Origin: Promethearchaeota archaeon
GTDB taxonomy: Archaea; Asgardarchaeota; Lokiarchaeia; Sigyniarchaeales; SOKP01
Direction of reading: 5' to 3'
NCBI GenBank assembly: GCA_048941285.1
Contig: JBHLNS010000052.1
Location: 1-20,122 of the forward strand
DNA length: 20,122 bases
Part shown: positions 1,934 through 19,874 of the stretch, piece by piece
How positions within the stretch are numbered: position 1 is the stretch's first letter
Layout of the letters: the number at the start of each line of letters is the position of its first letter
Translations under genes and position numbers: made by a program
Notes under the pieces: model-generated
The model's input: only the letters and a program-made list of their open reading frames with translations
Databases searched by the model: none
Told to the model about the DNA's origin: nothing

Positions 1934-3277
1934 CTAATAGAATTCACAATCAGCTAAAAGTTGTGAGATATCCATAACCTTAATAGAAGAATTATCTTCA
2001 GATGCTACTTGGTACAAATTATTCTTACAGAAAACACATGAACTTACAAGAACTTCTGCTGAGGTTTCGATAGCCTCTTTCAAACGATCTTCCCGCATTC
2101 GGGTCATACAAGCGCGTGTTTCTGTTATTCTATCTCTACCTACTTCGAGAGCAATATCACCATAGAGTGCCTTTACACCTCCTCCTGCACCACAACACCA
2201 AGACATATCTCTGTTATGCTTCATTTCGAACAGCTTGACACCTTCAATTCTTCGAATAAGTTCCCTCGGTTCTTCAAAAACATCACAATATCTTCCTAAA
2301 TGACATGGATCATGATAAGTTATAAGTAAGGGGTCTTCAATTGAACGTTTTGTATATCTTATTTTAAGATTCTTTTCTTTTGCGATCTTTAAAGCATATT
2401 GAGTAATATGATATAAATCAAATCCAAGATCGTAATTTGCAAATTTAGAATATTCTAGAGAAAATGTTGAAAAACATCCAGAACATGAGAAAACCACTTC
2501 TTTTACTCCGCTTTTCCGAATCATTTCATAGTTATGTCTTACAAGGTCCATAGCTTCATCTTCTAATCCTGTTCGGAATAATACAGAACCACAACATCTT
2601 TCTTCTGGAAAAAGAGTGAACTCAACTCCTAATTTCTTTAAAACTTGACTAGTTGCTGAAACGAGTTCTTTATTTCTATATGAAGAGGTACAACCTACAA
2701 AATAGCCAACAGAAAATTCACTTTCCTTAGCAACTTGAACCTCAGGTTTTTGCATACTCCGCTCATAAGCTTCAGCTCCTTCTTCACAAGCATTAACCCA
2801 ATTAAATCTATCCCCATGTTTTTCCAAAAAAGGATTATTATTTTCCAATATTGAACTTTTAAGGATTTTCAATTTTTCAGGCATTGCTCCCTTTTTTACA
2901 ACTTGTTTCCTAAAATTTTGAAAAACACTTAATGTATCGACTTTGACAGGACATACAACTTTACAATTACCACACAACATACAACGAAAAACTGAAGGAA
3001 TTATCTCATCCTTATCAAATTTAATGTCCTTTCTGTCTAATGCTTTAATAATTCTATTTCGCCCTCCAGCGTAATCAGTTTCGCACCAAGAAGTATTATA
3101 AACTTTACAAACATGACGGCAATACCCACAATGAGTACACCTTTCATAAGAATATCTTTCTTTAAACTTATCAGAAGGCTCGACTAAATTGTCTCTTGAG
3201 GGAGAAATTAAACCTGCTACTGGGGGGCCAGAAGTTATTACATTTTTTAAATTTTTTTTTTCTTTTCCTTCACTCAT
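1934..3277 (-). CDS. Fe-S oxidoreductase, GlcF/HdrD-like (2x[4Fe-4S] ferredoxin domain plus two CCG domains)
   Basis: Ferredoxin motifs CTHCGYCRHVC and CMLCGNCKVVCP. CCG domains YFVGC...ERCCGS...CSGC and YHDPCHLGR...WCCGAGGG...CVFC. Confidence 0.9.
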   Translation of the reverse strand: MSEGKEKKNLKNVITSGPPVAGLISPSRDNLVEPSDKFKERYSYERCTHCGYCRHVCKVYNTSWCETDYAGGRNRIIKALDRKDIKFDKDEIIPSVFRCMLCGNCKVVCPVKVDTLSVFQNFRKQVVKKGAMPEKLKILKSSILENNNPFLEKHGDRFNWVNACEEGAEAYERSMQKPEVQVAKESEFSVGYFVGCTSSYRNKELVSATSQVLKKLGVEFTLFPEERCCGSVLFRTGLEDEAMDLVRHNYEMIRKSGVKEVVFSCSGCFSTFSLEYSKFANYDLGFDLYHITQYALKIAKEKNLKIRYTKRSIEDPLLITYHDPCHLGRYCDVFEEPRELIRRIEGVKLFEMKHNRDMSWCCGAGGGVKALYGDIALEVGRDRITETRACMTRMREDRLKEAIETSAEVLVSSCVFCKNNLYQVASEDNSSIKVMDISQLLADCEFY

Positions 3278-3380: not shown

Positions 3381-4877
3381 TCAATTAGATTTCTTTATTT
3401 TAAATAATTTATACAATAGTTTTGCTGTGTTAAAAAGTAATGATACTCTCCAGAATTTCATTTTGGCTTTGGTTAATCTATAAGAATTAAATAAATGTTT
3501 TGGATCCACTTTATCCTTTAGAGTTTTCCAATTCTGTACTTCTTGAGGTTTATATTTTAGTAAATAAAAAGTATTAACAATTCCTATAGTATATAGCCTA
3601 TCTCCTTGATTGAATGCTTGAACAGTAAAATCATGCAAGAAGGCTTTAACCGCAAAGAACTCGAGAGTTCTGTCAATATCCGTTAAACCGAATATTTTTA
3701 CTCGCGTCCAACCCTTTTCTCCTGAAATTGCATAAGAAGCAGTTGGGAATTTATATTTCTTATGTTCTTTTAAATATAATTCCATAAAATTTCTTAATCT
3801 CTTATCTGAAATCCAATATTCTTGGAAAATTAAATTTCTTGTGGATAATCCTATTGATACTTCTGCATCACTAATATCACGCCACTTTTCTTTTAAATAG
3901 GAAGATTCAACCTCTACACAATTTATCTTAGACGCATATAATTTAACATCCGATATACTTTTAGAAGTTTGTTCAGGATCATCATAAAATACTGCCCAAA
4001 CAATCCATTCTTGCTTTGGGAAAGTTACATGCGAGTATTTTTCAAAATTTCTTTCTGAAATTGAAAGAAATAATGGTTTACTAGGCAGATCCTCCTTCAA
4101 TAACAAATAAAAATTAATAGCTTCTTCAATTGAATTAAAACCATATCCTATTATCTCTAAGGATGTTTTTAATGTAGTGATAGACAATTCAACGTTTGCT
4201 ATTGCTCCAAATATGCCATATGTACCTATAATATCTCCCAAACTTAATTCCTCATTAGAATCTCTGGAAATCTTAATTATTGATCCATCCGGTTTAACCA
4301 ATTCTAAGGAAATGATAGTAGATTCCATTTTTCCGTATTTAATGACACCTATACCTGCTTTTCCTGGAGTAGCAATGAATCCCCCTACACAAGAAGTTTT
4401 AAAACTAGTTGGAAAAGTCTTAGGTTCAAGACCATAATCAGATAACGCTTCTATTAAATTTAACCAAGAAATTCCACTACCTACTTTCACCGTCATTTTC
4501 TCTTGATTTATTTCATGAACTTTGTTTAATCTACGTATATCTATAATTACTCCTCCCATAGAGGGAGTTGCTGAAGAAAAACAAGAAGTTCCAGCTGCCC
4601 TAATTGTAATAGGAATATTAAGTTTTCTACATTTTTTTATTGCCATTGATAATTCATTAACATTAGCTGGGCGTATAACATAACTGGCTAAATATTGTTT
4701 TTTAAACTTATAATGATATGCGGGTAGAGAAGTGAGATCAGCCGAAGCAGATTCAAGTTCAAATGGATTGGTGCTCACATGGTAAGGAGAGATAAATTCT
4801 AAAAATTGATCTTCAAGATCTTTACGTCCACTTTTTCTTTTATTACTTTTCGCTTTATTATTATTAGACTGAACCAA
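3381..4877 (-). CDS. FAD-binding oxidoreductase, GlcD/D-lactate dehydrogenase (VAO/PCMH) family
   Basis: VIRPANVNEL...ITIRAAGTS...GGVIIDIRRLN, SCVGGFIAT, GTYGIFGAI, and C-terminal LKDKVDPKHLFN. TTG start with GAGGT Shine-Dalgarno upstream. Adjacent to a GlcF-like partner. Confidence 0.88.
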   Translation of the reverse strand: MVQSNNNKAKSNKRKSGRKDLEDQFLEFISPYHVSTNPFELESASADLTSLPAYHYKFKKQYLASYVIRPANVNELSMAIKKCRKLNIPITIRAAGTSCFSSATPSMGGVIIDIRRLNKVHEINQEKMTVKVGSGISWLNLIEALSDYGLEPKTFPTSFKTSCVGGFIATPGKAGIGVIKYGKMESTIISLELVKPDGSIIKISRDSNEELSLGDIIGTYGIFGAIANVELSITTLKTSLEIIGYGFNSIEEAINFYLLLKEDLPSKPLFLSISERNFEKYSHVTFPKQEWIVWAVFYDDPEQTSKSISDVKLYASKINCVEVESSYLKEKWRDISDAEVSIGLSTRNLIFQEYWISDKRLRNFMELYLKEHKKYKFPTASYAISGEKGWTRVKIFGLTDIDRTLEFFAVKAFLHDFTVQAFNQGDRLYTIGIVNTFYLLKYKPQEVQNWKTLKDKVDPKHLFNSYRLTKAKMKFWRVSLLFNTAKLLYKLFKIKKSN

Positions 4878-4899: not shown

Positions 4900-5772
4900 T
4901 CAAATTAATAATAAATTGGAGTTTAAAAAATAACCTAATAGGAAAGCACCCCACCAACTTACCAACGTAATATAACCTGTAATTTTTGCTGGCTTTCTTT
5001 CAGCTGCAATTCCAAACAGCATGCTTAAAAAGCCAGTGACTAAGCCTAATGCCCCTAGAATAATGTGCGGTAAGTGATAGATTAATTCATAGCCTCCAAG
5101 CCAAGCTCCAGCTGGTATTCTTATAAAAGCGGCAATAACATTGATAGTCGTTAAAATCCAAGAACCGCCTGCAAGGATCCCATGAATTTTAACGAATTTA
5201 TTTTCATTCACTAAAACTAAGATCGTTGCAAGTGTGAGTGCTAGTAATGCTGGCATTCCTAAATATAAACCTAAATGATTAAATATTGCAGAAAACAGAT
5301 CAAATCCGGGTGGGACCCCAATTATTATCTCAACATAGGCAAATTGTTGACCCCCAGTAAGGTTATTTCCTGAGATTATAAAGAGTTTATAGGATTCTTG
5401 CTCTACGATTGGTGTCACATTGAAGATTATAGTCATCGCATTGGGATTTGGGTCAAGATCATCTCCCGAGGCATCAACTATTTTATCTTTTGAAGGAATT
5501 ATGTTAAATTTATCATTATCTTTGGCACCAGGGTAAGCTTGTACAAATAAATCAGGTCCGGTTGCAGAAATGTTAAACACAAAATATGGAGTATTATTTA
5601 TTTCAGTTCTTACAGGATTAGTATATGAAATTGTATAAGCCCCTGATGAGTCATGACACCCACTAGAAGAATGTGTATCACCAAATGGAGGTCTTGCAGT
5701 TCCAAAGATAAAAATTGAAACAATCATCAATCCCATAATGCAAGAAAATATAACGAGAATTTTCTTTTTCAT
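4900..5772 (-). CDS. Secreted single-Cys H-x4-CH domain fused to a 4-TM His-containing (cytochrome b561/DUF420-like) membrane domain; candidate atypical cytochrome
   Basis: Signal peptide, then ARPPFGDTHSSSGCH (motif 5653-5673), KDNDKF and TPIVEQESYKL shared with three paralogs. Four C-terminal hydrophobic helices carry NHLG, KIHG and YHLPH histidines. Confidence 0.7.
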   Translation of the reverse strand: MKKKILVIFSCIMGLMIVSIFIFGTARPPFGDTHSSSGCHDSSGAYTISYTNPVRTEINNTPYFVFNISATGPDLFVQAYPGAKDNDKFNIIPSKDKIVDASGDDLDPNPNAMTIIFNVTPIVEQESYKLFIISGNNLTGGQQFAYVEIIIGVPPGFDLFSAIFNHLGLYLGMPALLALTLATILVLVNENKFVKIHGILAGGSWILTTINVIAAFIRIPAGAWLGGYELIYHLPHIILGALGLVTGFLSMLFGIAAERKPAKITGYITLVSWWGAFLLGYFLNSNLLLI

Positions 5773-5964: not shown

Positions 5965-7662
5965 ATGCTGAGTAATATATCTATAAAAAAGATTCTTGTT
6001 ATTAATTTGAGCTTAATTCTTTTACTTACATTTATACTACCATTATTATTAGATTTAATAGAATTAAGCTATAGAATTGTTTTTATATCCTTTCTTGGTA
6101 TTTTTTTGATCATATTTCTAATTGCTATCACAATCTTGGACGCCATTTTTCTAATGATTAAAAAACAAAATGTTTATTTTTTAACCGTTTTAACCATGAG
6201 TTTATCGTTGTTATTGTTTTTAATTATGATTTATAGTTTTTTAAATAATATTTATAAAATTGTATATGTAATGAATTATAGCAACAATTCCCTCCCTCTA
6301 ATTTATAAAGTTGTAGCAATCTGGGCTGGTGAAGAAGGGTCAATTATGACTTGGATGTTATTTAATTCAATAATAATCAATCTCTATAGAATTAAAAACC
6401 ATAACAAACAAGATTTAATTTTTATTCGTTCTGTAATTTTATCATCTATTATTTCATCATTTTTCTCAATAATATTATTATTCTTACATCCTTTTGAACT
6501 CCAACCATCCTCTCCTCCTGATGGATTAGGTTTAAATCCACTTTTAATATCTCCATTTATGATTTGGCATCCTTTTTTTACATTTATTGCATATGCTGTT
6601 TATTTAGTGCCATTTACTATAATAATCGCTGAAATAACAACACGCAAATTAAAACTTTTAGAATCTTTTCAAGATAAATTCTATAACTTTACCTTAAAAT
6701 TTGGATGGTTAGTTATGACTCTCAGTATCGGCTTAGGTGCATATTGGGCTAAAATCGCGTTAACTTGGGGCAGATATTGGGGTTGGGATCCAGTTGAAAC
6801 TGTTTCCCTCATTCCATGGTTTTTTATAACAGCTTTCTTTCATACTATGATTTTTAAGAAAAAAAAACCCATATTAATAAAGATAAATGTAGCTTTAGTT
6901 TTTTCCTCAATTATATTTTCAACATTAATTACACGAGGAGGAGGGTTAAGTTCACTCCATGCATTCACAGGAGAAGCAGAATTAGTTGTATGGGTAGTAG
7001 TTTTAGGCCTAATTTTAATCTTACTTCCCCTTTATGTAATTTATATTGTATTAGATTATTTAATGGAGGAATATCAGAATAAAAAACTATTCTTTGATTA
7101 CTTAAGTTATTTATTTTTAATTGGTTTAGCTTTTGTTTGTATCTTTGGACTATTTATCCCTCCATTTACCTATCTTCTTTCAGGTTTAATTCCAATAAAT
7201 ATTGTTTTCATTGGGAGCGATTATTTTATAATAACATCCTTAATTTTAGCAACGGGTTTGGCTTTAACATTGATTTTTTGTTCATTATGGGAATATTTTA
7301 GTATTAAAAATATAGTGTTTGTTATAATTATAGGATTGTTAATTCAAATTACATTCTCATTTACATTATTATTTATATCTAATATCTGGATAAATCCAGT
7401 TCTGTTAATATATTTAATGTCATTTTTTTCTTCTGTCTTCAAATTAACAAAAAATTTAATTTCAAAAAAAGGATTTAAATATTTTTTTAGGTTGAATTCA
7501 AAAACAATTATTCATGCTGGAATTTCCCTGATTCTTGCCGGATTTTTAATATCTTCAAATCTTCAAGATATCTTTTTCATTCCAGGATTCTTACTTCTAT
7601 TAATAGGTATAATTCCTTTAATTATTATCAGCTTTTTCCAAGAAAGACGGAGTTCAAGCTAA
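5965..7662 (+). CDS. ccmF: Cytochrome c synthetase (heme lyase) CcmF, compact form
   Basis: AIWAGEEGS, DGLGLNPLL, MIWHP, WWD domain WGRYWGWDPVET, FFH, TRGG-SSLHAF and C-terminal IIHAG; polytopic membrane protein. Confidence 0.93.
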   Translation: MLSNISIKKILVINLSLILLLTFILPLLLDLIELSYRIVFISFLGIFLIIFLIAITILDAIFLMIKKQNVYFLTVLTMSLSLLLFLIMIYSFLNNIYKIVYVMNYSNNSLPLIYKVVAIWAGEEGSIMTWMLFNSIIINLYRIKNHNKQDLIFIRSVILSSIISSFFSIILLFLHPFELQPSSPPDGLGLNPLLISPFMIWHPFFTFIAYAVYLVPFTIIIAEITTRKLKLLESFQDKFYNFTLKFGWLVMTLSIGLGAYWAKIALTWGRYWGWDPVETVSLIPWFFITAFFHTMIFKKKKPILIKINVALVFSSIIFSTLITRGGGLSSLHAFTGEAELVVWVVVLGLILILLPLYVIYIVLDYLMEEYQNKKLFFDYLSYLFLIGLAFVCIFGLFIPPFTYLLSGLIPINIVFIGSDYFIITSLILATGLALTLIFCSLWEYFSIKNIVFVIIIGLLIQITFSFTLLFISNIWINPVLLIYLMSFFSSVFKLTKNLISKKGFKYFFRLNSKTIIHAGISLILAGFLISSNLQDIFFIPGFLLLLIGIIPLIIISFFQERRSSS

Positions 7663-7975: not shown

Positions 7976-10852
7976 ATGAGATTAAATAAGAAACTCGCAT
8001 CATTTTTAGTCCTTTCTATATTTGTCTTTTCTATTATTGGATTTGCAGTAGCTAGATCGAGCTTTTTTGCTGATTTTATAGGAAATGGGCATTCTGGATC
8101 TTGCCATAATGGAAACTTTATTTTGAGTTCTTCCGGTTATATCGATATAAGTTCAAGTTCAGGAAATACCGTAAATTTAGGTGAAATTTTTACTCTCACT
8201 ATAGATATTTTCTCATTCAGTGAAGCTGCGAGTGCTAAGAAAGTAGACTCAGGTTTTCCGAATGGAAATCCTGGTCGCGGTGATAATAAGCAATTTATTT
8301 TTTCCCCTAATCCTCCAAAACTTGAAGTTGATATTGATGGTTCAGGTAATTCTATTAATTCATTAAATTATCAAGTGACTGCTCCAATTACAGAGGGGAG
8401 TTACACCTTAATAGCTGATGCTATTTTTAAGGGCTCTACATATACTTATTATGCTACAGGAAATTTTGTCATCAATGTAATTTTACCTAATAATGCCCCT
8501 CAATTTAATAATCTTATTAAGAGTAGCGATCCTTTAGAATTAGGACAAGGAGAAACAGTTCAAATAGATGTCATTGATACTGAAACAAGTGTTAGTGATG
8601 TTCTCATTGAAATTGAAAGCATAAATTATACTATGACAAATTCTATAGCGGATACATATGAATACAATTGGATTCCGTCTAGTACAGGCTTAGTATTATA
8701 TACAATATATGCAAACGATACTGATGGAAGTTGGAATTCTATTAGTGATAGTATAAATGTAATTGATACAACTGCACCAACATTTTCTAATTTGGTTGAA
8801 AGTTACGACCCATTAGAATTAGGACAAACAGAAATAATCCAAATTAATGCTACAGATCTGTCAGGAATAAGTCAAGTATCTATTGAAATAAGTGGTATGA
8901 ATTATTCCATGGTAAATGTAATTGGTTCAACTTGGGAGTATAACACTTGGACTCCTACTAGCATAGGATTAAAATCTTACATAATTTATGCAAATGATAC
9001 ATTAGGAAATTTAAATTCAATAAGCAGTGATATCACAATTTTGGATACAATTGCACCAACCTACGCCTTTTTAATTGAAAGTGCTGATCCACTACCACTG
9101 GGACAAAATGAAACCATTTCAATTGAAGTATATGATTCACCAGGTTCTGGAGTAAAAGAAGTACTGTTAGAGTATAACAATTTTAATCATACTATGAATT
9201 TCGTTGGTTTTAATACGTGGCATTGGTCTAATTGGAAGCCGTCCTCTATAGGAATTTTTGATTACGTTATTTACATGATTGATAACAGTAATAATTTAAA
9301 TATAACAACAGGATCTATTGATGTATTTATTTCATCTGGACCAACAATACAAAATTTGTCAAAAAGCTCTAATCCTTTGGAATTAGGGCAAATAGAGACA
9401 ATTCAAGTTGACGTTGAAGATAATGATGGAGTGAGCGAAATTTTTATTGAAATCAATGCGATCAATTATACAATGGTACCGATTGGTGGAGTGAGATATG
9501 AATATAGTTGGGTACCAAATTCTTTTGGAACGAAATTTTTTAAAATATATGCTAAGGATTCTTTAAATAATTGGAATCAGATAACTGATAATATCATTGT
9601 ACAAGATACAACACCTCCAAATTATGCAAATTTAACAGTAAATAGTGATCCTCTTGAATTAGGCAATTTAATAATGATTTCAATTGATGCTACAGACTTA
9701 TCAGATATAAAACAGGTGCTTATTGAATATCATGGTGCAAATCATTCAATGCATTTTATTGGGGGGAATAAATGGATAAATAATACTTGGATCCCTAATA
9801 CAGCCGATATTCATCAATACACTATTTATATTCAAGATAATGCAAACAATTGGAACTTTACGATTGGTTCTTTTCAAGTAATTGATACAACTCTTCCCAC
9901 CTTATCAAATTTAAATGAAAGCGCTGAATTTTTAGAATTAGGACAAACCGAGATAATTTCAATTGATATTTTTGATTTTGCACCTATAACTCTTGCAAAT
10001 ATTGAGATTAATAGTAATAATTACACATTGAATAATATCGGAGGAGGAACATGGCAGTATAGTTGGATTCCAGATTCTATAGGACTAAAATTCTATAGAA
10101 TATACGCTAGAGATTCAAATAATAATTGGAACTATATAGATGGCAATATTACTGCAATAGATACGAGTGGACCAACTTTTTCAAACCTATTAGAAAGTGC
10201 AGATCCATTAGAATTAGGTAATACCGCTGCAATTCAAGTAGATGTTTTTGATTTTTCTCCACTAAATTTTATTTTGTTTGAGAATGCAGGTATCAATTAT
10301 TCTATGACAAATATAGGAGGGATAACGTGGCAATTTAATAATTGGACTCCAGCAAGGATGGGATTAAAATTCTATAGTCTTCATGCTGTTGATTCACTAA
10401 ATAACATGGTATCATTAAAGAATAATATTACCGTTGTAGATACAATAGGCCCAACATTTTCAAATGTAGTTATTAATAATAAAACAATAATTATTGGGCA
10501 GTCTATTTTGATTCAAGTAGATATTATAGACCCATCTAATGTTTCTAATGTTTTAATTGAATATGAAGGTTTTAATCATTCTATGATTAACATCGCTGGA
10601 AATAGTTGGGAATATAATTGGATCCCAAGTTCAACAGGGGATATATCTTTAGTTATTTATGCAAACGACAACAATAACAATTGGAATATAATAAATTATA
10701 ATATCGTTGTTAATAAAAAATTAACATCCAATTATATAATGTCAATAAAAGAAATTATTGAAGTTACAATAAATATCAGTATAATTAGTATAATTATAGC
10801 TGGAATAGTGATCATAATAAGAACTTCAAGAACAAAACGATTTATTAAATAA
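7976..10852 (+). CDS. Large surface protein: signal peptide, single-Cys H-x3-CH domain, 8 Ig-like repeats, C-terminal TM anchor
   Basis: AVA-type cleavage site, GHSGSCH (8090-8107, the only Cys in 958 aa), GDNKQF, APITEGSYTL. Eight ~93-aa repeats, then a hydrophobic helix and basic tail. Lies between ccmF and ccmA on the same strand. Confidence 0.8.
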   Translation: MRLNKKLASFLVLSIFVFSIIGFAVARSSFFADFIGNGHSGSCHNGNFILSSSGYIDISSSSGNTVNLGEIFTLTIDIFSFSEAASAKKVDSGFPNGNPGRGDNKQFIFSPNPPKLEVDIDGSGNSINSLNYQVTAPITEGSYTLIADAIFKGSTYTYYATGNFVINVILPNNAPQFNNLIKSSDPLELGQGETVQIDVIDTETSVSDVLIEIESINYTMTNSIADTYEYNWIPSSTGLVLYTIYANDTDGSWNSISDSINVIDTTAPTFSNLVESYDPLELGQTEIIQINATDLSGISQVSIEISGMNYSMVNVIGSTWEYNTWTPTSIGLKSYIIYANDTLGNLNSISSDITILDTIAPTYAFLIESADPLPLGQNETISIEVYDSPGSGVKEVLLEYNNFNHTMNFVGFNTWHWSNWKPSSIGIFDYVIYMIDNSNNLNITTGSIDVFISSGPTIQNLSKSSNPLELGQIETIQVDVEDNDGVSEIFIEINAINYTMVPIGGVRYEYSWVPNSFGTKFFKIYAKDSLNNWNQITDNIIVQDTTPPNYANLTVNSDPLELGNLIMISIDATDLSDIKQVLIEYHGANHSMHFIGGNKWINNTWIPNTADIHQYTIYIQDNANNWNFTIGSFQVIDTTLPTLSNLNESAEFLELGQTEIISIDIFDFAPITLANIEINSNNYTLNNIGGGTWQYSWIPDSIGLKFYRIYARDSNNNWNYIDGNITAIDTSGPTFSNLLESADPLELGNTAAIQVDVFDFSPLNFILFENAGINYSMTNIGGITWQFNNWTPARMGLKFYSLHAVDSLNNMVSLKNNITVVDTIGPTFSNVVINNKTIIIGQSILIQVDIIDPSNVSNVLIEYEGFNHSMINIAGNSWEYNWIPSSTGDISLVIYANDNNNNWNIINYNIVVNKKLTSNYIMSIKEIIEVTINISIISIIIAGIVIIIRTSRTKRFIK
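8489..10711 (+). repeat. 8 tandem ~93-aa Ig-like beta-sandwich repeats
   Basis: Repeat starts NNAP, DTTAP, DTIAP, ISSGP, DTTPP, DTTLP, DTSGP, DTIGP. Consensus DPLELGQ...I.I.V.D...V.IE....N(Y/H)(T/S)M......W.Y.W.P...G...Y.IYA.D..NNWN. Confidence 0.88.
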
Positions 10853-10930: not shown

Positions 10931-11644
10931 ATGGTTCAATCCAATAAAAATATGATAAAATGCATAAATATATCAAAACAATTTGGTTATTTTCTTGCAC
11001 TCAAAAAAATTTCTCTCACAATAAAAGAAAATACGATATTCGGGATAGCAGGAGCAAATGGGGCAGGAAAAACGACCTTAATTAAAATTTTATCAGGATT
11101 ACTTAAACCAACTTTTGGCAGTATTGAGGTTGAAGGAATGAATTATCTAAACCATTCAGATATTTTGAAACAAAATATCGGTATTACTACGGATGAATCA
11201 TTTCTTTATGAGGAACTAACTATTCTGGAAAATTTAATGTTTTATGGTAATCTTCACCTAAATTTTCAAAAAACTATTTTAAAGTCAAAAATTGAACAAA
11301 TGGTGGAACAATTCAATTTAAAAGATTGGTTAAATGAACCTGTTAGAATTTTATCTCATGGGATGAGACAAAAAGTTGAATTAATAAGAGCTTTAATACA
11401 TGAGCCTTCAATATTATTTCTGGATGAACCGTTTTCAGGATTAGATTATAATGCAACTACAATGTTGATTAATTTCTTTAAAGAATTAAAAAAAAATAAA
11501 AAGATATCGATTATTCTCTCAACTCATAAAATTGAAGTATTCCAACAAATTTGTGATGATTTGATCGTATTAAAACAAGGAAAAATCAATAAAGCTTTTA
11601 TAAATGAGAGATTTGACGAAACTGAAATTAAATCTTATTTTTAG
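10931..11644 (+). CDS. ccmA: Heme exporter ABC ATPase CcmA
   Basis: Walker A GANGAGKTT, signature LSHGMRQK, Walker B LFLDEPFSGLD, STH switch. Directly upstream of ccmB. Confidence 0.88.
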   Translation: MVQSNKNMIKCINISKQFGYFLALKKISLTIKENTIFGIAGANGAGKTTLIKILSGLLKPTFGSIEVEGMNYLNHSDILKQNIGITTDESFLYEELTILENLMFYGNLHLNFQKTILKSKIEQMVEQFNLKDWLNEPVRILSHGMRQKVELIRALIHEPSILFLDEPFSGLDYNATTMLINFFKELKKNKKISIILSTHKIEVFQQICDDLIVLKQGKINKAFINERFDETEIKSYF

Positions 11645-11656
11645 GAGGATTATATA

Positions 11657-12382
11657 ATGAAAGATGAGAAAGTAACCCTGAAATCAAAACTGAAATTACT
11701 AAAAATTATTTTATCTAAAGATATTAGATCTGAACTTAGACAAATTAATGATTTATTTTCAATATTCCTCTTTGATTTAATCTCAATCTTTATATTTTCA
11801 TCAGTATATAACTTTGGCACTCAATATCAAAATATGCCATTGGAGGTTTTTGTTATTGAAAATTGGCTCATTATATTCTTTACACTTGTTTATATTATGT
11901 CTAAACTTTTCATTAAAGAGAAAGATTCTGGAACAATTGGGGGAATACTCTCATCTCCTATATCTGCTAATCTATTAATTGCAAGTAAAATCATTTTTTG
12001 TCTAATTCTACTAAGTTTTGTAGAGTTAATCCTTTTTCTCTTTAGTACATTTATATCAGTGCCTTCTATTAGTAACTTTAACGCCTCTCAATTAATGATT
12101 TATGTCTTTTTGGGTATTTTATTACCGACATTGGATCTATCTATATGTGGGAGTTTAGTCTCTGCTTTTTCTATGTATGTTAAGAATAAATCTTTTATTT
12201 TGCCAATTTTGCTTTTTCCATTAATTCTTCCTATTATTACTCCCATTATTTCAATTAATATAAAAATCTTAGAAGGTGAATTAATAACTAGTCTATATTA
12301 TGAAATTATATTTTTTTGCGCCCATATTGTTCTCATGAGTTCGATAACGATATTAACTTCACAAGCTCTCTTATACGATTAA
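11657..12382 (+). CDS. ccmB: Heme exporter permease CcmB
   Basis: KDIRSELR, FIKEKDSGT..GILSSP, ASKI, ILPILLFPLILP motifs; about 6 TM. GGAGG SD at the ccmA/ccmB junction. Confidence 0.92.
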   Translation: MKDEKVTLKSKLKLLKIILSKDIRSELRQINDLFSIFLFDLISIFIFSSVYNFGTQYQNMPLEVFVIENWLIIFFTLVYIMSKLFIKEKDSGTIGGILSSPISANLLIASKIIFCLILLSFVELILFLFSTFISVPSISNFNASQLMIYVFLGILLPTLDLSICGSLVSAFSMYVKNKSFILPILLFPLILPIITPIISINIKILEGELITSLYYEIIFFCAHIVLMSSITILTSQALLYD

Positions 12383-12389
12383 ATAAGAT

Positions 12390-12734
12390 TTAACTACATT
12401 GAGTAAGGATTTGGGTTGCTACTAAAACCAATGAGGAATTAAAAACACCTGTTACCACAACTTCAATTCCATTCTCAAGATCACTAGGAGGAGTTAACCC
12501 ATTTATATCGACATAAATACTATAATCTCCCTCAGTTAAATTGAAGTAGTTAGCATTAAAATCTTCAACAATCCCGATAATTTGAACTTCTTTATTATCA
12601 TATTTGGTGGGATTTAAGGCGACTTGAGAAACTTTAAGATAAGGGCGTGCATTAGTGGTAAGTAATGTAATTATGATTATTATAGATATAATAATTCCTA
12701 CAATTGCAATAATTTTAGATTTTTTTAGCTTCAT
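12390..12734 (-). CDS. ccmE: Heme chaperone CcmE, Cys-type, C-terminally truncated
   Basis: N-terminal TM, YLKVSQV, OB-fold (VQIIGIV...PSDLENGIEVVVTG...ATQILTQC). Ends Cys-Ser-stop where HxxxY/CxxxY normally lies. Confidence 0.88.
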   Translation of the reverse strand: MKLKKSKIIAIVGIIISIIIIITLLTTNARPYLKVSQVALNPTKYDNKEVQIIGIVEDFNANYFNLTEGDYSIYVDINGLTPPSDLENGIEVVVTGVFNSSLVLVATQILTQCS

Positions 12735-12894
12735 TGTCTATTTCTTTTAAGTTATTATCTAAATTTTTAATTCTTTTTAATATCTTTTTTAATCTAAGTT
12801 TAGGATATAAGATTAGAATTATAATAACTGCCCAAAAAAATATATAACTAACAATTATAGTTATTAAATCTTGATAGAAATATTGTAATAACAT
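12715..12894 (-). CDS. ccmD: CcmD-like small membrane protein (59 aa, missing from the ORF track)
   Basis: Hand translation: MLLQYFYQDLITIIVSYIFFWAVIIILILYPKLRLKKILKRIKNLDNNLKEIDNEAKKI*. One TM then a basic tail, GAGGAG SD in the end of ccmC, located exactly between ccmC and ccmE. Confidence 0.8.
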   Translation of the reverse strand: MLLQYFYQDLITIIVSYIFFWAVIIILILYPKLRLKKILKRIKNLDNNLKEIDNEAKKI

Positions 12895-12899
12895 TTAAT

Positions 12900-13631
12900 T
12901 TACTCCTCGATTAACCTTTTTTGTATAATTAGATCTAATTTTTCTTTTGTTTTATCTAATTCTCCTAACCTTTGAATAACATAAAAAAATAAGATGGTTA
13001 TTCCGATCAAATTAAAAATTAACATAAAAATTTTCACTGGATCCCAGTAAATATTCCCAGGTTCTCCAGGAGTTGGATTAATTAATGGATGTAAACTTGT
13101 GAATATAATAGCAGAGAAGTAACTCAAGGGAACTGTTGGAAATAATGTGATACCTAAAACTGAAGATAATTTTGCTCTTTTTTCTTTATCTTCAATCATA
13201 CTTCTAAAGATTAAATAAGATAGATAACAAAGAAGTAACACTAAAGTCATAGTTTGTCTCCCATCACTCCATTGCCAAAATATATTGTTATAATCTCCAG
13301 AAGTAGCATTGTACCATAAAGATCCGGTAATTAAAGTAAATGCAGTAAAAAATACTCCTACAATAATACTATTTGTACCTAAACGGTTCCAATTTAATTC
13401 GTGTTTCTTTAAATAAATGATATGAAATAATAAACTAATACCAAATGACAAATATGCAAGCCATGCCCCAGAGACATGGTAAAAAAATATAATGTATACT
13501 ATACGATTAGGACTCCCCCATAAAATTAGGTTTAAAGAAGTTAGGATTAAAATTAATAACAAATTGATAACAAGCATTGTCAAAGAAAGGATTAACATAA
13601 AGTTAGACTGAAATATTTTCCTACCTTTCAT
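12900..13631 (-). CDS. ccmC: Heme transporter/chaperone loader CcmC with a divergent WWD domain
   Basis: IFFYHVSGAW (His1), LITGSLW...WQWSDGRQT (WWD), YLIFR, TSLHP (His2); about 6 TM. Confidence 0.92.
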   Translation of the reverse strand: MKGRKIFQSNFMLILSLTMLVINLLLILILTSLNLILWGSPNRIVYIIFFYHVSGAWLAYLSFGISLLFHIIYLKKHELNWNRLGTNSIIVGVFFTAFTLITGSLWYNATSGDYNNIFWQWSDGRQTMTLVLLLCYLSYLIFRSMIEDKEKRAKLSSVLGITLFPTVPLSYFSAIIFTSLHPLINPTPGEPGNIYWDPVKIFMLIFNLIGITILFFYVIQRLGELDKTKEKLDLIIQKRLIEE

Positions 13632-13758: not shown

Positions 13759-14424
13759 TCATTTCTTTTTACGTCTAATCAATAGGATGATTACTCCAGA
13801 GGCAGCAATTCCACCTGCAATATATAAAAATGCATTATTAAATGGTATGAACGATACTAAGGAAGCAATGTTAACAGAATCTGAAGTCACTGTAAATACT
13901 AATGTTTTATGAAGATAAATAATAGACTGTGCATCACCAGTAGTATTCATTGCGTTAACAACAGCAATTACTAAATTATATACTCCATCAGTTTCAGGGG
14001 GTAATACTCTAAATTTTAATGGATTGACTGTATTTCCATTTGCATTTAATTCAACTTCCCATATTGCGACACCCCAGTAATCAGTAAGCCCATTAACTGT
14101 GTTTTCTGCGATTCCTAATCCAAATTCTTTATTATCACCTAGCCCATAAGGAATACTGATAGCAAAGCTTCCTGATCTACCATTATTAGATTCAAGAGCA
14201 TCAGTAAAACCTTGTATTGAGGTTCTAAGGGTGACTAATCTCCCAGATGTTACTGTCGATACTGTTAATGTTCCTGCTGAAGCTGCATCACTAGAACCAT
14301 GACATCCTGTATGGGAAGCACCTTGATAATTCAGAATTTCGGTGGGATATGCGACAGCTGTACCGATTACTCCCACGGCTAAAGCTGTTAATAAAAAGAG
14401 CATTAATACTTTACTATTTTTCAT
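13759..14424 (-). CDS. Secreted, membrane-anchored single-Cys HxxCH domain protein; candidate atypical c-type cytochrome
   Basis: Signal peptide AVA|YP, SHTGCH (HTGCH at 14299-14313, the only Cys), GDNKEF, PPETDGVYNL, C-terminal TM plus RRKKK. Confidence 0.75.
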   Translation of the reverse strand: MKNSKVLMLFLLTALAVGVIGTAVAYPTEILNYQGASHTGCHGSSDAASAGTLTVSTVTSGRLVTLRTSIQGFTDALESNNGRSGSFAISIPYGLGDNKEFGLGIAENTVNGLTDYWGVAIWEVELNANGNTVNPLKFRVLPPETDGVYNLVIAVVNAMNTTGDAQSIIYLHKTLVFTVTSDSVNIASLVSFIPFNNAFLYIAGGIAASGVIILLIRRKKK

Positions 14425-15074
14425 TTTGAATCATCTCCTCTCTTTTTTTTACGGATTACAACGAGAACTATAGGAACAACAGCAAGAAGTCCAGAAGCAA
14501 TTATAAAGATTAATCCATAACCAGGAATAGCACCACCTGAGGATTTAACAGTAACTGTTACTGTGGTTTTAATATAATTAAATGGTTGAACAGTTGCGAA
14601 TGATTCTCCACCATCAACCGCTACGATAGTTAATGTATGTGCACCACCAGTAACAGGAGCATATACAAGAAGTGTTACTGTATTATTACCATTTCCAGAG
14701 GAATCCAATCCAACTTCAAACGCGATTGCTTCAAGATTTCCAGAATGATTTTGAACACCAAAAAAGAAACCATGATTATCACTAATTCTAGCTGATATGC
14801 CAACTAAAACATGCTTATTTGCTGCCGCTGTAAATCCAGTTATAGTAAGTGTAACATTAAATTGAGTCCCAGGATCAATTATATCAGTGCTAATATTAAC
14901 TGGTGAAACTGTTGCAGATAAAGTGCCAGCTGATTCTGTATAAGTTCCCGCATGACACGAACCATGATCCATTTCTTCCCATTCTATCATATAACCAGGC
15001 CATGCGCTAACAGTACCTACTATTGCGAATACAAAGAATACTATAATGAACAATCGTAAAAATTTTTTGTTCAC
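14421..15074 (-). CDS. Secreted single-Cys HxxCH domain protein with an IPGY (Loki-CTERM/PGF-CTERM-like) sorting tail; candidate atypical c-type cytochrome
   Basis: GTG start, signal peptide VSA|WP, DHGSCH (HGSCH at 14952-14966, the only Cys), SDNHGF, APVTGGAHTL, IPGY-TM-RKKKR. ATGA overlap with the next paralog. Confidence 0.75.
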   Translation of the reverse strand: MNKKFLRLFIIVFFVFAIVGTVSAWPGYMIEWEEMDHGSCHAGTYTESAGTLSATVSPVNISTDIIDPGTQFNVTLTITGFTAAANKHVLVGISARISDNHGFFFGVQNHSGNLEAIAFEVGLDSSGNGNNTVTLLVYAPVTGGAHTLTIVAVDGGESFATVQPFNYIKTTVTVTVKSSGGAIPGYGLIFIIASGLLAVVPIVLVVIRKKKRGDDSK

Positions 15075-15360: not shown

Positions 15361-15924
15361 TTAAAAATTACCACATCCACTACATTTACCATCAAGAAAG
15401 GCATTACACTCTTTGCAGATATTATCACATTTTTGTTCTTTACTAATGCCACTAAAAAGGTTAAGAGGAAGAAATTTAGGAACAATCAAATCAGAAGTAA
15501 ATATAATTGCGGAGTGTAATACACCTTTTTTATTAGTAGGGCCACAAAAGTTAATATATCTACGTAAAACATCGACACTTTGTCCAATTATTCCAAATAT
15601 TAAATTATATTGACCAGTCACATGTGCTAATAGAAATACTCTAGGACACTCAGCATATGCGTCACTTATTTTCTGAACCTCTTCAAAATTTTTCATTTCC
15701 ATTAAAATAAACGCTATATAATAATTTAAGTTCTTAGCACTTATATTTCCTTGAATCTTAAGAATCCCAGTATCTTCTAATTTAGAAATACGATTTGCGA
15801 TTCCAGCATGGCTCATAGTATCATGATTTGATTTTATAATAGTTTTGCTTAAGGAACTAAAACTATCACGCCCATTATTAAATAAGGCAGTTAAAATTTG
15901 TTTATCAATTTGATCCAATAACAT
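15361..15924 (-). CDS. Lrp/AsnC-family transcriptional regulator with a Cys-rich C-terminal tail
   Basis: LDQIDKQIL..L..NGR HTH start, RISKLEDTGIL, RAM domain (CPRV..AHVTGQYNL), tail Cx3Cx2Cx7Cx2C. Start moved to ATG 15924 so it aligns with the 187-aa paralog. Confidence 0.9.
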   Translation of the reverse strand: MLLDQIDKQILTALFNNGRDSFSSLSKTIIKSNHDTMSHAGIANRISKLEDTGILKIQGNISAKNLNYYIAFILMEMKNFEEVQKISDAYAECPRVFLLAHVTGQYNLIFGIIGQSVDVLRRYINFCGPTNKKGVLHSAIIFTSDLIVPKFLPLNLFSGISKEQKCDNICKECNAFLDGKCSGCGNF

Positions 15925-16333
15925 AATTATATCACTAGAAACTCTCATATTAAAAAGAATTCTTTATATTTAACGAATTTGGTTAACCTCAACCATCCAA
16001 TATAATTAGGATTCAATTTGCAACAGATTTTAATTAAAAGTTTAAATTTGAAAAATCTAAATTATTATTTATATTCCGGGTAGATTCTTTCATCAAAAAT
16101 TTCAAAATCTAGAAAAAACAAAACTTTTAAGAGTTAAACTAATACATGTCAAATATTAAAAAATCACAATATAACATGTTATTAACATTAAAGTATCAAT
16201 TTTTCTTGTATAATGCCAAATAATTTAAAATGTTTTTACTTTGATAAATATCATATTGTTTATAACCAACAAACTTTAAAATCTGCAAATTAAGTTATAT
16301 TTAATATAACCATAGATCATTAGTCTGAATAAT

Positions 16334-16897
16334 ATGCAAATAGATGGAATAGATAAGCAAATATTAAATGCTTTGTTTGATAACGGACGCGAAAGTTTAA
16401 CAAACTTGGAAAAGATTATATTCAAATCTGGTAATGAAACCATGAGTCATACCGGAATTGCAAAACGTATTTCTAAATTAGAAGATACGGGGATTCTTAA
16501 GGTTCAAGCTAATACGAATTTAAATAATCTAAGGTATAAAATTGCAATTATATTAATAGAAATGAGTAATTACGATGAAGTACAAAAAGTTATTAGGGCT
16601 TATGAGGATTGTCCTAGAGTTTTTCTGTTAGCACATGTAACAGGTCAGTACAATTTAATTTTAGGAATAATTGGCCAAAGTATCGATGTTTTACATAGAT
16701 ATATTAACTTTTGTGGTCCAACAAATAAACAGGGGATTCTTCATGCTGCAACCATTTTTGTATCAGAACTTATTACACCTAAGTTTTTTCCACTAAATTT
16801 ATTTAGCCAAAAAAGTCAAGAGGAAAAATGTGGAAATATTTGTAATGATTGTGCTGCTTATCTTGATGGAAAATGTAACGGATGCGGTAATTTTTGA
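16334..16897 (+). CDS. Lrp/AsnC-family transcriptional regulator with a Cys-rich C-terminal tail (paralog)
   Basis: Colinear with the divergent neighbour and has the same 7 cysteines. Confidence 0.9.
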   Translation: MQIDGIDKQILNALFDNGRESLTNLEKIIFKSGNETMSHTGIAKRISKLEDTGILKVQANTNLNNLRYKIAIILIEMSNYDEVQKVIRAYEDCPRVFLLAHVTGQYNLILGIIGQSIDVLHRYINFCGPTNKQGILHAATIFVSELITPKFFPLNLFSQKSQEEKCGNICNDCAAYLDGKCNGCGNF

Positions 16898-17242: not shown

Positions 17243-18565
17243 ATGGCTGTAAAAGTAGCATTCTTACAAAATTCTGATTGCTGGGGGTGCCATCAAAGCT
17301 TATTAAATCTACATTTGAGTTTGCTTAATGTCCTCCCCGCATTAGAGATTGTCTATTGGCCAGCTGTAGTAGATTTCAAATATGATTCGTTAAAAGCAAG
17401 AGAAGACGGTGAGATCCTTGTAGGATTCGTTGAGGGAAGTCTACGGACTAAACACGATATTGCACAAACGAAATTATTAAGACAAAAATGTGCTTTAATC
17501 ATAGCTTTTGGTAGTTGTTCATGCTATGGTAATGTACATGGATTAGCTAATCAATGGAGTATAGAAGATCTAGTAAAGCGTAAATTTTCCGAAGTTGAGA
17601 GTATAGCAGATGAAAGTGGTGGTGAACCTATGGTTAACACTCCTGGATTTGCTGATAAAATTGTTCCTGTCGATGAGATTATTAAAGTTGATGCATATAT
17701 GGCAGGTTGCCCTCCCAAACCAGAGGCAATTGCTAGTGCAGTTGTTTTTCTATTAGGTCAAAAACCCCAACCAATGAATGATTTAGCATTCTGTAATGAC
17801 TGTTCTATTAAAGATAATTGTTTATTAGATAAAGGGACATTATGTTTCGGACCAATTACTAGTATTGGATGTAGTCTTAAATGTACTAGTGATAATAAAC
17901 CTTGTGTTGGCTGCTTTGGACCTGCTAAAACTGTTGATTCACGAGCAGATAAATTAAACAATATGGCGAATAATCTTAATTCTCTTAATAGTGGTGATAA
18001 AAAGAGTCTTTATGAATTCTTACCTCTCTTCTTAAATCTTCCTCTTATGGCAGGATTTGATTTAGCTGGAGATATTTTAAAACAGGTTAAAAAACATGGA
18101 ACTCCAGATACTCCTTTAGCAAATCTTCCACCTACAACTGAAGAGTTAGCAGGAAAAATAATGGCATTCTTAAGAGATAATCGTGATTTCACAGAAATCT
18201 CAAATGTATGCGATACTTGTCCAAGAATAATTGGTAGTAAATCAACAATGACAAGAGTAAAACGAGATTATGAAGGCCTTCCTAATATGGATGATTGTTT
18301 TATAGAACAAGGTTATATATGTGTAGGTCCGATTACTAGAGCTGGTTGCGGTGGAATGTGTATAAAGGTTAACTCTCCATGTACTGGTTGTTTCGGTCAG
18401 ACTGAATGGAATGTTAATCAAGCAGAGAGATTTGCTGATACAGTAATAAAGGGATTCAATGTAAATTTATCTAAAGATGAAATTCTTAATCAAGTAAAAG
18501 ATCCATTGGGTACTTTTGAGAAATTTACATTGGCATCAAATAGAAGTTATAAAGGAGGCGAATAA
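17243..18565 (+). CDS. vhuG: [NiFe(Se)] hydrogenase group 3c small subunit (MvhG/VhuG) with a duplicated Fe-S module
   Basis: Proximal-cluster ligands DCWGC, FVEGS, AFGSC, GCPP, followed by two copies of the 8-Cys medial/distal module. Confidence 0.88.
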   Translation: MAVKVAFLQNSDCWGCHQSLLNLHLSLLNVLPALEIVYWPAVVDFKYDSLKAREDGEILVGFVEGSLRTKHDIAQTKLLRQKCALIIAFGSCSCYGNVHGLANQWSIEDLVKRKFSEVESIADESGGEPMVNTPGFADKIVPVDEIIKVDAYMAGCPPKPEAIASAVVFLLGQKPQPMNDLAFCNDCSIKDNCLLDKGTLCFGPITSIGCSLKCTSDNKPCVGCFGPAKTVDSRADKLNNMANNLNSLNSGDKKSLYEFLPLFLNLPLMAGFDLAGDILKQVKKHGTPDTPLANLPPTTEELAGKIMAFLRDNRDFTEISNVCDTCPRIIGSKSTMTRVKRDYEGLPNMDDCFIEQGYICVGPITRAGCGGMCIKVNSPCTGCFGQTEWNVNQAERFADTVIKGFNVNLSKDEILNQVKDPLGTFEKFTLASNRSYKGGE

Positions 18566-18569
18566 AAAA

Positions 18570-19874
18570 ATGGTTAAAGAAATAGTAGTTGAACCAGTGA
18601 CTCGATTAGAAGGTCACAATAACCTAAAAGTTATTCTCGGAGATGATGGTAGTGTTCAAGATATTCAATTTAGTATTACATCAACCCGATTTTTTGAAAA
18701 ATTTTTGGAAGGTAGATATTGCGAACACATTCCTAGAATTACTCCAAGAATATGCGGTATTTGTCCAATTCCTCATCATCTAACTCCTACGAAAGCTGTA
18801 GAAGATGCTTGGGGGGTCCAAATTCCTCCTGCGGCATACAAATTGCGTCAATTATTACAGAACGCAAAACAATATTCATCACACGCATTACATTTTTATG
18901 CTCTTGCTGCTCCTGATTTCTTATTAGGGCCTATGGCAGATCCAGCTTTAAGAAATGTTGTGCATGTAATTAATAAGATGCCTGATGTAGGTGCTATGGC
19001 ATTAAAAATGATGGATTTTGGTCAAAAATTATGTCAAGCGATTGGAGGTAAATCTGTGCATCCAATTGTTGCAATTCCAGGTGGAATGAAAAAACCTTTA
19101 GATGAAGATGTCAGAGATTTATTTTTAAAACAAATTGAAGACCAAGTCGAATGGACAAAAAAAACAGTTGACATTGGATTAAAAGTTGTTGAAGATTATT
19201 GGGATGTCGTAGCTAATGTTGGAGTTGTGCCTACATATTATCTTGGTTTAACGAAAAACGGAGTTCATGATATTTATGATGGAGATCTTCGTATCTGTTC
19301 CCCTAATGGCGAAAAATTCGATTATGCACCTCAAAATTATCTTGAAGCTTTAGGAGAACATATTCCTGAACATTCATATGCAACTCATATGTATTATAAA
19401 CCAGCTGGGTATCCTGAGGGGATATATAGAGCAAATACACTAGCTATGATTAACTGTGCTGATAAAATGGCTACACCCTTGGCTGATGAAGCCTTACAAG
19501 CAATGAGAGCAAAAGTCGGAAAGGTATCACATCACACATTTGCATATCATTGGGCTCGATTAATCGAATTAGTCGAATCCATTGAAGTTATCGCAACACT
19601 TCTCCAAGATGATGATATTGTAAATCCTGATTGCAAAACACTGGATGTACAACCAAGAGAAGGAAATGGTGTTGGTGTAACTGAAGCTCCACGAGGAGTA
19701 CTTCTTTATAATATTTGGTCAGATGCAGAAGGAATTTGCAAAAAAGCAAATCTCTTAGTAGCTACTAACCATAATATAGCAGGTATTGAAAAGACACTAA
19801 AACATGTTGCTAAGCAGGTTTTTGAAGACAAAGCACTAGATGGTCTAAAATTGCCCAAGCCGTGGATAGAATAA
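18570..19874 (+). CDS. vhuA: [NiFeSe] hydrogenase group 3c large subunit, N-terminal part (VhuA)
   Basis: EPVTRLEGH, RFFEKF, L1 motif RICGICPIPH, EAPRG, ATNHN. The L2 (DPCxxC) motif is absent. The start is most likely ATG 18570, with GGAGG at 18554-18558. Confidence 0.92.
   Translation: MVKEIVVEPVTRLEGHNNLKVILGDDGSVQDIQFSITSTRFFEKFLEGRYCEHIPRITPRICGICPIPHHLTPTKAVEDAWGVQIPPAAYKLRQLLQNAKQYSSHALHFYALAAPDFLLGPMADPALRNVVHVINKMPDVGAMALKMMDFGQKLCQAIGGKSVHPIVAIPGGMKKPLDEDVRDLFLKQIEDQVEWTKKTVDIGLKVVEDYWDVVANVGVVPTYYLGLTKNGVHDIYDGDLRICSPNGEKFDYAPQNYLEALGEHIPEHSYATHMYYKPAGYPEGIYRANTLAMINCADKMATPLADEALQAMRAKVGKVSHHTFAYHWARLIELVESIEVIATLLQDDDIVNPDCKTLDVQPREGNGVGVTEAPRGVLLYNIWSDAEGICKKANLLVATNHNIAGIEKTLKHVAKQVFEDKALDGLKLPKPWIE

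Follow-up and report, generated by a model that had tools for sequence, protein, structure and literature searches.

Two overlapping genes of a Promethearchaeota archaeon, here called A and B, encode predicted exported and membrane-anchored proteins with one cysteine each, which lies in the motif H-x-x-C-H close to the mature N-terminus. They occupy positions 13,759 to 15,074 on the minus strand of contig JBHLNS010000052.1 (assembly GCA_048941285.1), whose 20,122 nucleotides were analysed as a whole and will be referred to as the window. We consider it probable, at roughly 0.7, that A and B are c-type monohaem cytochromes of the cell surface which would hold their haem by a single thioether bond and would be matured by a remodelled cytochrome c maturation (Ccm) system, in which CcmE ends in QCS and lacks the tyrosine of the CXXXY motif. 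Haem binding, the single thioether and a role in electron transfer we infer from the sequences of the proteins and of their neighbours. An earlier reading of the same letters, the original prediction, had proposed distant relatives of cytochrome f, or of Reeler or DOMON domains, using the N-terminal amine as haem ligand.

Genes A and B and the Cys-His domain family

The following features were assigned to the gene pair (aa, amino acids; TM, transmembrane segment; AF2, AlphaFold2):

14421-15074, minus strand: gene B, 217 aa, GTG start; signal peptide, mature W-P end, HGSCH, predicted beta-sandwich, IPGY, TM and basic tail
15003-15074, minus strand: predicted signal peptide of B, residues 1-24, VSA/WP; -3/-1 rule, W at +1 and P at +2 each in 37/37 proteins
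14952-14966, minus strand: putative haem site of B, H37-G-S-C40-H41 (thioether Cys and proximal His), from alignments; sole Cys of B
14424-14528, minus strand: C-terminal tail of B, IPGY, TM and RKKKR, resembling a sorting signal; Heimdall-CTERM E 0.15 and Loki-CTERM E 0.24, both below cut-off
13759-14424, minus strand: gene A, 221 aa; signal peptide, mature Y-P end, HTGCH, predicted beta-sandwich, C-terminal TM helix and RRKKK
14350-14424, minus strand: predicted signal peptide of A, residues 1-25, AVA/YP; -3/-1 rule, A25 and P27 invariant
14299-14313, minus strand: putative haem site of A, H38-T-G-C41-H42, from alignments; sole Cys of A
13762-13833, minus strand: predicted C-terminal anchor of A, helix 198-220 and basic end; AF2 model, generic anchor model TIGR01167 at E 0.0018

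The start codon of gene A overlaps the stop codon of gene B in an ATGA. Cleavage is predicted after GTAVA in the precursor of A, leaving YPTEILNYQGASHTGCH, and after GTVSA in that of B, leaving WPGYMIEWEEMDHGSCH; for these two proteins and for the paralogues C and D described below, the sites are rule-based and rest on the -3/-1 rule together with invariant alignment columns (A25, P27). The mature Y-P and W-P ends noted in the original prediction, and their counterparts in C and D, were recovered from the open reading frames (ORFs), and H..CH follows 12-16 residues further on: the cysteine stands 15 residues from the predicted +1 position in A and in B, 12 in C and 16 in D, and is the only one of the mature protein in all four. 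The C-terminal anchor that had likewise been proposed is present in A, B and D, the exception being C, which has a four-helix membrane domain. Both A (helix 198-220) and B (hydrophobic tail with basic cluster) qualify as proteins with a single C-terminal TM anchor. No LPXTG motif is present in the anchor of A, although its TM and basic part match TIGR01167, and models of C-terminal sorting signals gave no more than weak matches with the tails of A and B.

The AF2 model of A (mean predicted local distance difference test score, pLDDT, of 66.9) places a beta-sandwich across residues 46-188, with strands at 52-60, 63-71, 87-90, 136-141, 147-157, 169-179 and 184-188. These strands cover the stretches for which beta structure had originally been suggested.

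Two further genes of the window encode the same domain:

4900-5772, minus strand: paralogue C, predicted cleavage after TA, leaving RPPFGDTHSSSGCH; the shared domain (HSSSGCH) joined to a 4-TM part in which four His are conserved
7976-10852, plus strand: paralogue D, predicted cleavage after AVA, leaving RSSFFADFIGNGHSGSCH; the shared domain (HSGSCH) at the N-terminus, carried by a stalk of immunoglobulin (Ig)-like repeats, C-terminal TM

A and B are similar to each other (BLASTP, 1e-19), D matches the family profile A3 at 5.2e-48, and an alignment of all four proteins showed invariant H, C, H, D/N-N, F and G positions. Except for Big_7 in the stalk of D, none of the four matched a Pfam or NCBIfam model. 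In the 3.55 Mb genome, H-x(2-4)-CH within the first 80 residues occurs in four ORFs with a signal-peptide-like start; since all of them are located in the window, namely A to D, the motif is more than a product of chance.

A profile built from relatives of A, B, C and D retrieved 105 cluster representatives at E<=1e-3 and 68 at E<=1e-10 among 1.84 billion, and by this sequence comparison A to D are members of an unnamed family of beta-sandwich domains. Among 92 aligned rows of the family, the Cys-His pair is the sole essentially invariant one (C41 in 91/92, H42 in 92/92). Conservation also extends to the eighth position upstream, which is aromatic (88/92), and to N98 (89/91), F101 (86/91), P143 (89/92) and Y149 (Y in 77 rows, F in 12). 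Besides H42, the upstream H38 (63/85 rows) is the only conserved His or Met, and beyond these two no conserved distal His, Met or Lys was found in the alignment, in agreement with the original statement that a distal Met or His is lacking. Family A comprises 24 proteins, with P27, H38, C41 and H42 invariant in 20 rows; family B comprises 38, with W25, P26, H37, C40 and H41 invariant in 23 rows, and its named members all derive from Asgard metagenome-assembled genomes (MAGs), as do the named homologues in general. Locus tags indicate that the A-B gene pair is adjacent in other MAGs as well. In family C, the first motif position is His in at least 110/116 proteins by motif search and in 115/116 (H34) in the alignment.

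Relatives with classical two-cysteine motifs belong to the same family. A cysteine replaces the upstream histidine in 21 of 94 rows, giving CXXCH, CXCH and CX4CH forms, and 9 of the 94 have neither residue. In f31, another family of the same phylum, all ten orthologues of the C type that were examined carry two cysteines (CX2CH in five, CX3CH in one, CX4CH in three, CX5CH in one). The orthologue of C in genome G351 retains the 4-TM domain, the His pattern and the GlcD/HdrD neighbours (BLASTP 9e-11 and 3e-13), and it adjoins ccmF and a multi-CxxCH cytochrome. A maximum-likelihood tree of the 94 rows showed that His and Cys states are clustered, yet were interchanged often: H underwent 10 changes, at least 7 of them forced by well-supported branches.

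The wider family is linked to a named model, NCBIfam NF041895 ('choice-of-anchor V'). Of 35 family members that were scanned, 22 match most of this profile at scores below threshold; the best of them reaches 39.6 bits (5.1e-10), where the cut-off is 42, and 30-34 bits were obtained for D-type proteins from other genomes. A single member in the phylum exceeds the cut-off, that of G069 at 67.2 bits, in which the signal peptide is followed by an N-proximal CX3CH. A and B differ in having His for the first Cys and did not match the model at E<=1. No literature linking NF041895 to haem was found, and in papers on Asgard cytochromes or Ccm, HXXCH, Reeler and choice-of-anchor proteins no description of the family or of the H-x-x-C-H motif was found. 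A search of the PDB sequences with the family profile gave a best E of 0.99.

A and B are predicted to pair. Three runs of a complex model, built with custom alignments and with two riding haems, gave a median interaction prediction score from aligned errors (ipSAE) of 0.63 (0.58, 0.63 and 0.83), compared with 0.00 for the best of three controls; 116 of 157 solved complexes and 2 of 215 mismatched pairs attain this mark, a calibration that is only approximate for such a model. At least 58% of the contacts were common to the runs and the partner pLDDT was at least 72. In the model, the contact is formed by the edge strands with the conserved D-N-x-x-F-x-x-G, residues 101-107 of A with 100-107 of B. 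Homodimers of A and of B are equally conceivable, since the two are paralogues.

The Ccm genes and their link to the domain

All four domain genes are interleaved with genes of a System I (Ccm) cluster:

5965-7662, plus strand: ccmF (haem lyase); PF01578 1.4e-25, TIGR00353 1.8e-43
10931-11644, plus strand: ccmA; profile match
11657-12382, plus strand: ccmB; profile match
12390-12734, minus strand: ccmE, Cys-type, ending ...TQCS-stop; profile match and tail comparison
12715-12894, minus strand: 59-aa ORF with a single TM, in the position and of the size of CcmD, between ccmC and ccmE
12900-13631, minus strand: ccmC; PF01578 4.3e-16, TIGR01191 1.9e-18

The domain and the Ccm system also occur together in other genomes. 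Among 400 genomes of the phylum, 43 of which carry the domain and 89 CcmF, CcmF was detected in 38 of the 43 domain-positive genomes compared to 51 of the 357 domain-negative ones, counts that were drawn from related genomes and do not represent independent events. Within the genus of the archaeon, the same 19 of 54 genomes carry both, and 35 carry neither. Comparison by hand of the places in the genome tables showed that, of the 38 genomes with both, 32 have a domain gene and ccmF on one contig, separated by no more than 17 kb. One of the five domain-positive genomes without a CcmF match, G233, carries its domain gene at the end of a contig, next to ccmC, ccmE, ccmB and ccmA. No credible secreted CxxCH protein was found among the 30 CxxCH ORFs of the genome under study, which therefore contains a Ccm system without another visible client. 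CcmH and CcdA/DsbD were searched for in this genome and were not found.

The Ccm machinery itself differs. In all 30 CcmE matches of the archaeon's own family (loci L055-L084) the CXXXY tyrosine is absent, 27 of the proteins ending in QCS, one in QCST and two, of a second type, in YCCDRS.GV; in the QCS form the stop follows one residue after the haem-binding cysteine. CPSKY is kept in CcmE of all five f31 genomes compared, whose clients have two cysteines. Judged by these alignments, the Ccm machinery has changed along with its clients. Of 30 related loci, 28 have the 59-aa ORF between ccmC and ccmE, which gave no family match.

The cluster resembles the streamlined System I of Methanosarcina acetivorans, as described in PMC9084895, in its set of ccmA, B, C, E and F, in that CcmH and CcdA are not found, and in CcmE with Cys in place of the bacterial His. 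It is different in the QCS-stop of CcmE without Tyr, in the CcmD-sized ORF and in its clients without the first Cys. According to the same source, holo-CcmE in M. acetivorans requires Cys120 of CXXXY, and ccmD was reported absent from archaea. The ccmD-like family described for the class HRBIN17 in PMC10849945 is a different one.

These data are compatible with the following model. A and B would be translationally coupled and exported c-type cytochromes with one haem and a C-terminal anchor, and would represent a new family of beta-sandwich domains. After Sec export and removal of the signal peptide, CcmABC, perhaps together with the 59-aa ORF, would charge the cysteine of the truncated CcmE with haem, and CcmF would hand it on to the single Cys of the client, with the following His serving as proximal iron ligand. 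Attachment would take place outside the membrane and would be the task of the streamlined System I encoded nearby (CcmABC, the CcmD-like ORF, CcmE and CcmF), and the upstream His of the client would sit where classical cytochromes have their first Cys. With regard to what marks a c-type cytochrome, exported proteins with an invariant Cys-His pair and linked maturation genes (ccmABCEF) are both present in the window, and the two-Cys motif is missing from A to D.

Cytochrome f and other explanations

Cytochrome f has a signal peptide, an aromatic-Pro mature end, an N-proximal haem motif, a mainly beta structure, a single C-terminal TM and no distal side-chain ligand, and is matured by System II. 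A (Y-P) and B (W-P) share the signal peptide, the aromatic-Pro end, the putative haem motif near the N-terminus, the predicted beta structure, the single TM and the lack of a conserved distal side-chain ligand; they differ in having one Cys instead of two, in their System I (Ccm) cluster and, as far as the model of A allows with its haem-motif segment at pLDDT <50, in a single sandwich without the small domain. Descent from the large domain of cytochrome f, or from Reeler or DOMON domains, with the mature alpha-amino group as sixth ligand, would account for this layout and is in agreement with the conserved N-termini: all aligned members of families A (20/20), B (23/23) and C (116/116) have Pro at the predicted +2 position, the +1 residue is W throughout the B proteins (37/37) and either H or Y in 16/22 A proteins, the cysteine stands at spacing 15 in 36/37 B proteins, and in a crude genome background (n=486) Pro at +2 amounts to 7.6% and Y/W at +1 to 7%. 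The missing distal side chain would also suit an amine ligand, and, at the level of a lead, ESM Atlas neighbours of A named 'Reelin domain-containing' (0.87 and 0.81) would suit Reeler kinship; overall, A retrieved 'hypothetical' and 'Reelin domain-containing' clusters of Thermoplasmatota at 0.81-0.89, which is below the level that shuffled proteins reach. Homology was nevertheless not borne out by any direct comparison. Neither PF16639 nor PF01333 (Apocytochr_F) matched any of the four window proteins or of 82 relatives at E<=0.01, a scan of the entire genome with PF16639 was negative at E<=1, with a positive control in Synechococcus elongatus, and a search for cytochrome b (PF00033) that succeeded in 8 control genomes gave no match in this one (94% complete). 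Foldseek against PDB structures (none at E<=0.001) and two VIA fold comparisons, one over 48,161 chains and one on Foldseek's top 997, yielded no cytochrome f, Reeler, DOMON or NEAT structure; generic Ig-like domains of the macroglobulin, transglutaminase and GH2 types were matched throughout. Like DOMON and Reeler domains, the family appears to be an extracellular beta-sandwich, but PF02014 had no match, no Reeler match was obtained in the 86 proteins, hhalign gave a profile-profile probability of 0.56% for DOMON, and the weak DOMON-like parts (PF03351, in four relatives only: P0122, P0137, P0138 and P0149) lie further along the chain, separate from the Cys-His domain. Family-wide, moreover, +1 is variable (Y in 24/84), and Pro at +2 occurs in 6 of the 10 f31 orthologues. 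Homology to cytochrome f is thus unsupported by the sequence searches, the resemblance is most likely one of layout, that is, analogy and not descent, and the combined explanation appears unlikely. Amine ligation taken by itself is possible, because the proline at +2 is invariant and the spacing fixed.

If A and B bind haem, the role of the upstream histidine has to be considered. H38 might act as sixth ligand in a bis-His haem, or the haem might be five-coordinate and leave a position free for a ligand or substrate; apart from the proximal His, H38 is the sole conserved one (63/85 family-wide, 115/116 in family C), and the 9 of 94 rows without an upstream His or Cys indicate that a sixth ligand would be dispensable. 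The His of H-x2-CH, however, stands where the first thioether Cys would otherwise be, at the edge of the haem; by the known geometry of CxxCH it cannot reach the distal face from there, and it is swapped for Cys in close relatives. We regard this variant as tentative, with a chance somewhat below even; no sixth ligand, the N-terminal amine and the upstream His are all possible candidates. The H...CH triad might also bind a non-haem metal (Cu, Fe or Zn) or serve other surface or adhesion chemistry, with Ccm acting on other clients. A His/Cys/His triad is suited to metal binding, the sandwich is a generic Ig-like one of the surface, D looks like an adhesin stalk, and genes for haem synthesis were not found. 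Against this stand the lack of any other Ccm client in the genome, the CxxCH of relatives, the synteny with ccmF in 32/38 genomes and the dispensability, across the family, of the upstream His where Cys-His is invariant, and we consider such a site very improbable.

Several observations count against the single-thioether reading as well. The haem-motif segment of the AF2 model of A (residues 24-47) has pLDDT <50. Two vinyls cannot be bridged by the CXCH variants, of which there are about 11 representatives, and this leaves the role of the upstream residue in doubt. The searchable papers contained no precedent for a motif that begins with His and has only one Cys, and the co-occurrence with CcmF is weakened by the relatedness of the genomes. 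HemB, HemC and HemD were not found in the genome (94% complete), nor was HemB in 10 other cluster-bearing genomes, four of which are scored 100% complete; haem would therefore have to be scavenged. The absence of HemB does not single out the His-type proteins, because G351 and G360 encode a classical multi-CxxCH cytochrome and HemB was likewise not found there. The 11 Ccm-bearing Asgard genomes without a detected HemB imply haem scavenging or another pathway. For Loki, the accessible part of PMC7997004 notes only a putative haem exporter.

Single-Cys cytochromes as such are known from Euglenozoa, whose mitochondrial cytochromes c and c1 have A/FxxCH, belong to the alpha-helical class I and are not known to occur with Ccm. 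They are similar to A and B in the one thioether expected and in XXXCH with an invariant Cys-His; they differ in having Ala or Phe first, not His, and an alpha-helical fold in place of the beta-sandwich.

The single-thioether reading can be extended to a re-tooling across a whole clade of Loki-type Asgard archaea, in which the first Cys of every client is replaced by His, the Tyr tail of CcmE is lost, the CcmD-like protein is present, the sixth ligand is missing or is the free N-terminal amine (positioned by the invariant x-Pro end as in cytochrome f, but of independent origin), haem is scavenged, and A-B heterodimers together with C and D form a surface conduit to partners or minerals. Taken as a whole this is rather doubtful; if true, supposedly fermentative and syntrophic archaea could pass electrons directly to partners or minerals. 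Were A and B confirmed as single-thioether cytochromes, the rules of substrate recognition by System I would be widened, a new haem-binding fold would be added, and the parallel to cytochrome f would represent convergence on an N-terminal haem site of a beta-sandwich. Close relatives of the eukaryotic ancestor would also have a possible means of passing electrons out of the cell or between species, as long as haem is supplied from outside. Surveys that count CxxCH motifs miss proteins of the A/B type, and Loki-type Asgard archaea have been deemed cytochrome-free.

Paralogues C and D and the remaining genes of the window

Downstream of C, two genes for putative redox enzymes were identified (FAD, flavin adenine dinucleotide; CCG, the Cys-Cys-Gly type):

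3381-4877, minus strand: GlcD-like FAD protein
1934-3277, minus strand: HdrD/GlcF-like Fe-S/CCG protein

The membrane end of C was assigned as a four-helix domain from an AF2 model made without an alignment, which is poor (pLDDT 50.6) and was used for helix counting alone. Between residues 155 and 290, H166, H197 and H236 are each conserved in 116/116 proteins, H233 in 112/116 and M251 in 113/116. This pattern suggests that C carries haem b for transfer across the membrane. ESM Atlas leads for this part, DUF420 (0.78) and cytochrome b561 (0.75), are below the level reached by shuffled proteins. One homologue of C is automatically named 'Cytochrome oxidase subunit I profile domain-containing' in UniRef.

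The GlcD/HdrD gene order is repeated beside the CxxCH orthologue of C in G351, and the Cys-His domain is fused directly to HdrD-like modules in two relatives (P0083 and P0105). Together, A, B, C (a haem domain with a His-rich 4-TM part next to FAD and Fe-S/CCG proteins) and D (on its Ig stalk) would probably constitute an electron chain between cytoplasm and surface, and the gene arrangement suggests electron flow between the cytoplasmic FAD/Fe-S enzymes and the cell surface.

Further relatives of the Cys-His domain contain LanC-like/alpha-alpha-toroid domains, fused to it or encoded beside it (L031, 5144-7351, minus strand; P0120, P0144 and P0148), a rhodanese (P0127) or PKD repeats (P0101).

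On the other side of A and B, a divergent pair of regulator-like genes and a hydrogenase were found:

15361-15948, minus strand: Lrp/AsnC-like protein with an extra C-terminal Cys-rich tail, C-x3-C-x2-C ... C-x2-C-G-N-F
16334-16897, plus strand: second Lrp/AsnC-like protein with such a tail, divergent from the first
17243-19874, plus strand: both subunits (small and large) of an Mvh/Vhu-type NiFe hydrogenase, adjoining the cluster

The Lrp/AsnC-like pair may constitute a metal- or redox-sensing regulator of the cluster. An assignment of the two genes as siroheme decarboxylases AhbA/B was dropped, as they matched models of Lrp/AsnC regulators only. A 64%-identical copy is encoded beside the cluster in G233 (L034, 6303-6887). 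The ORF of the hydrogenase small subunit is long (440 aa) and contains additional Cys-rich regions. At the opposite end of the window, positions 1-1776 of the plus strand encode a large leucine-rich-repeat protein, which is open at the 5' end of the contig.

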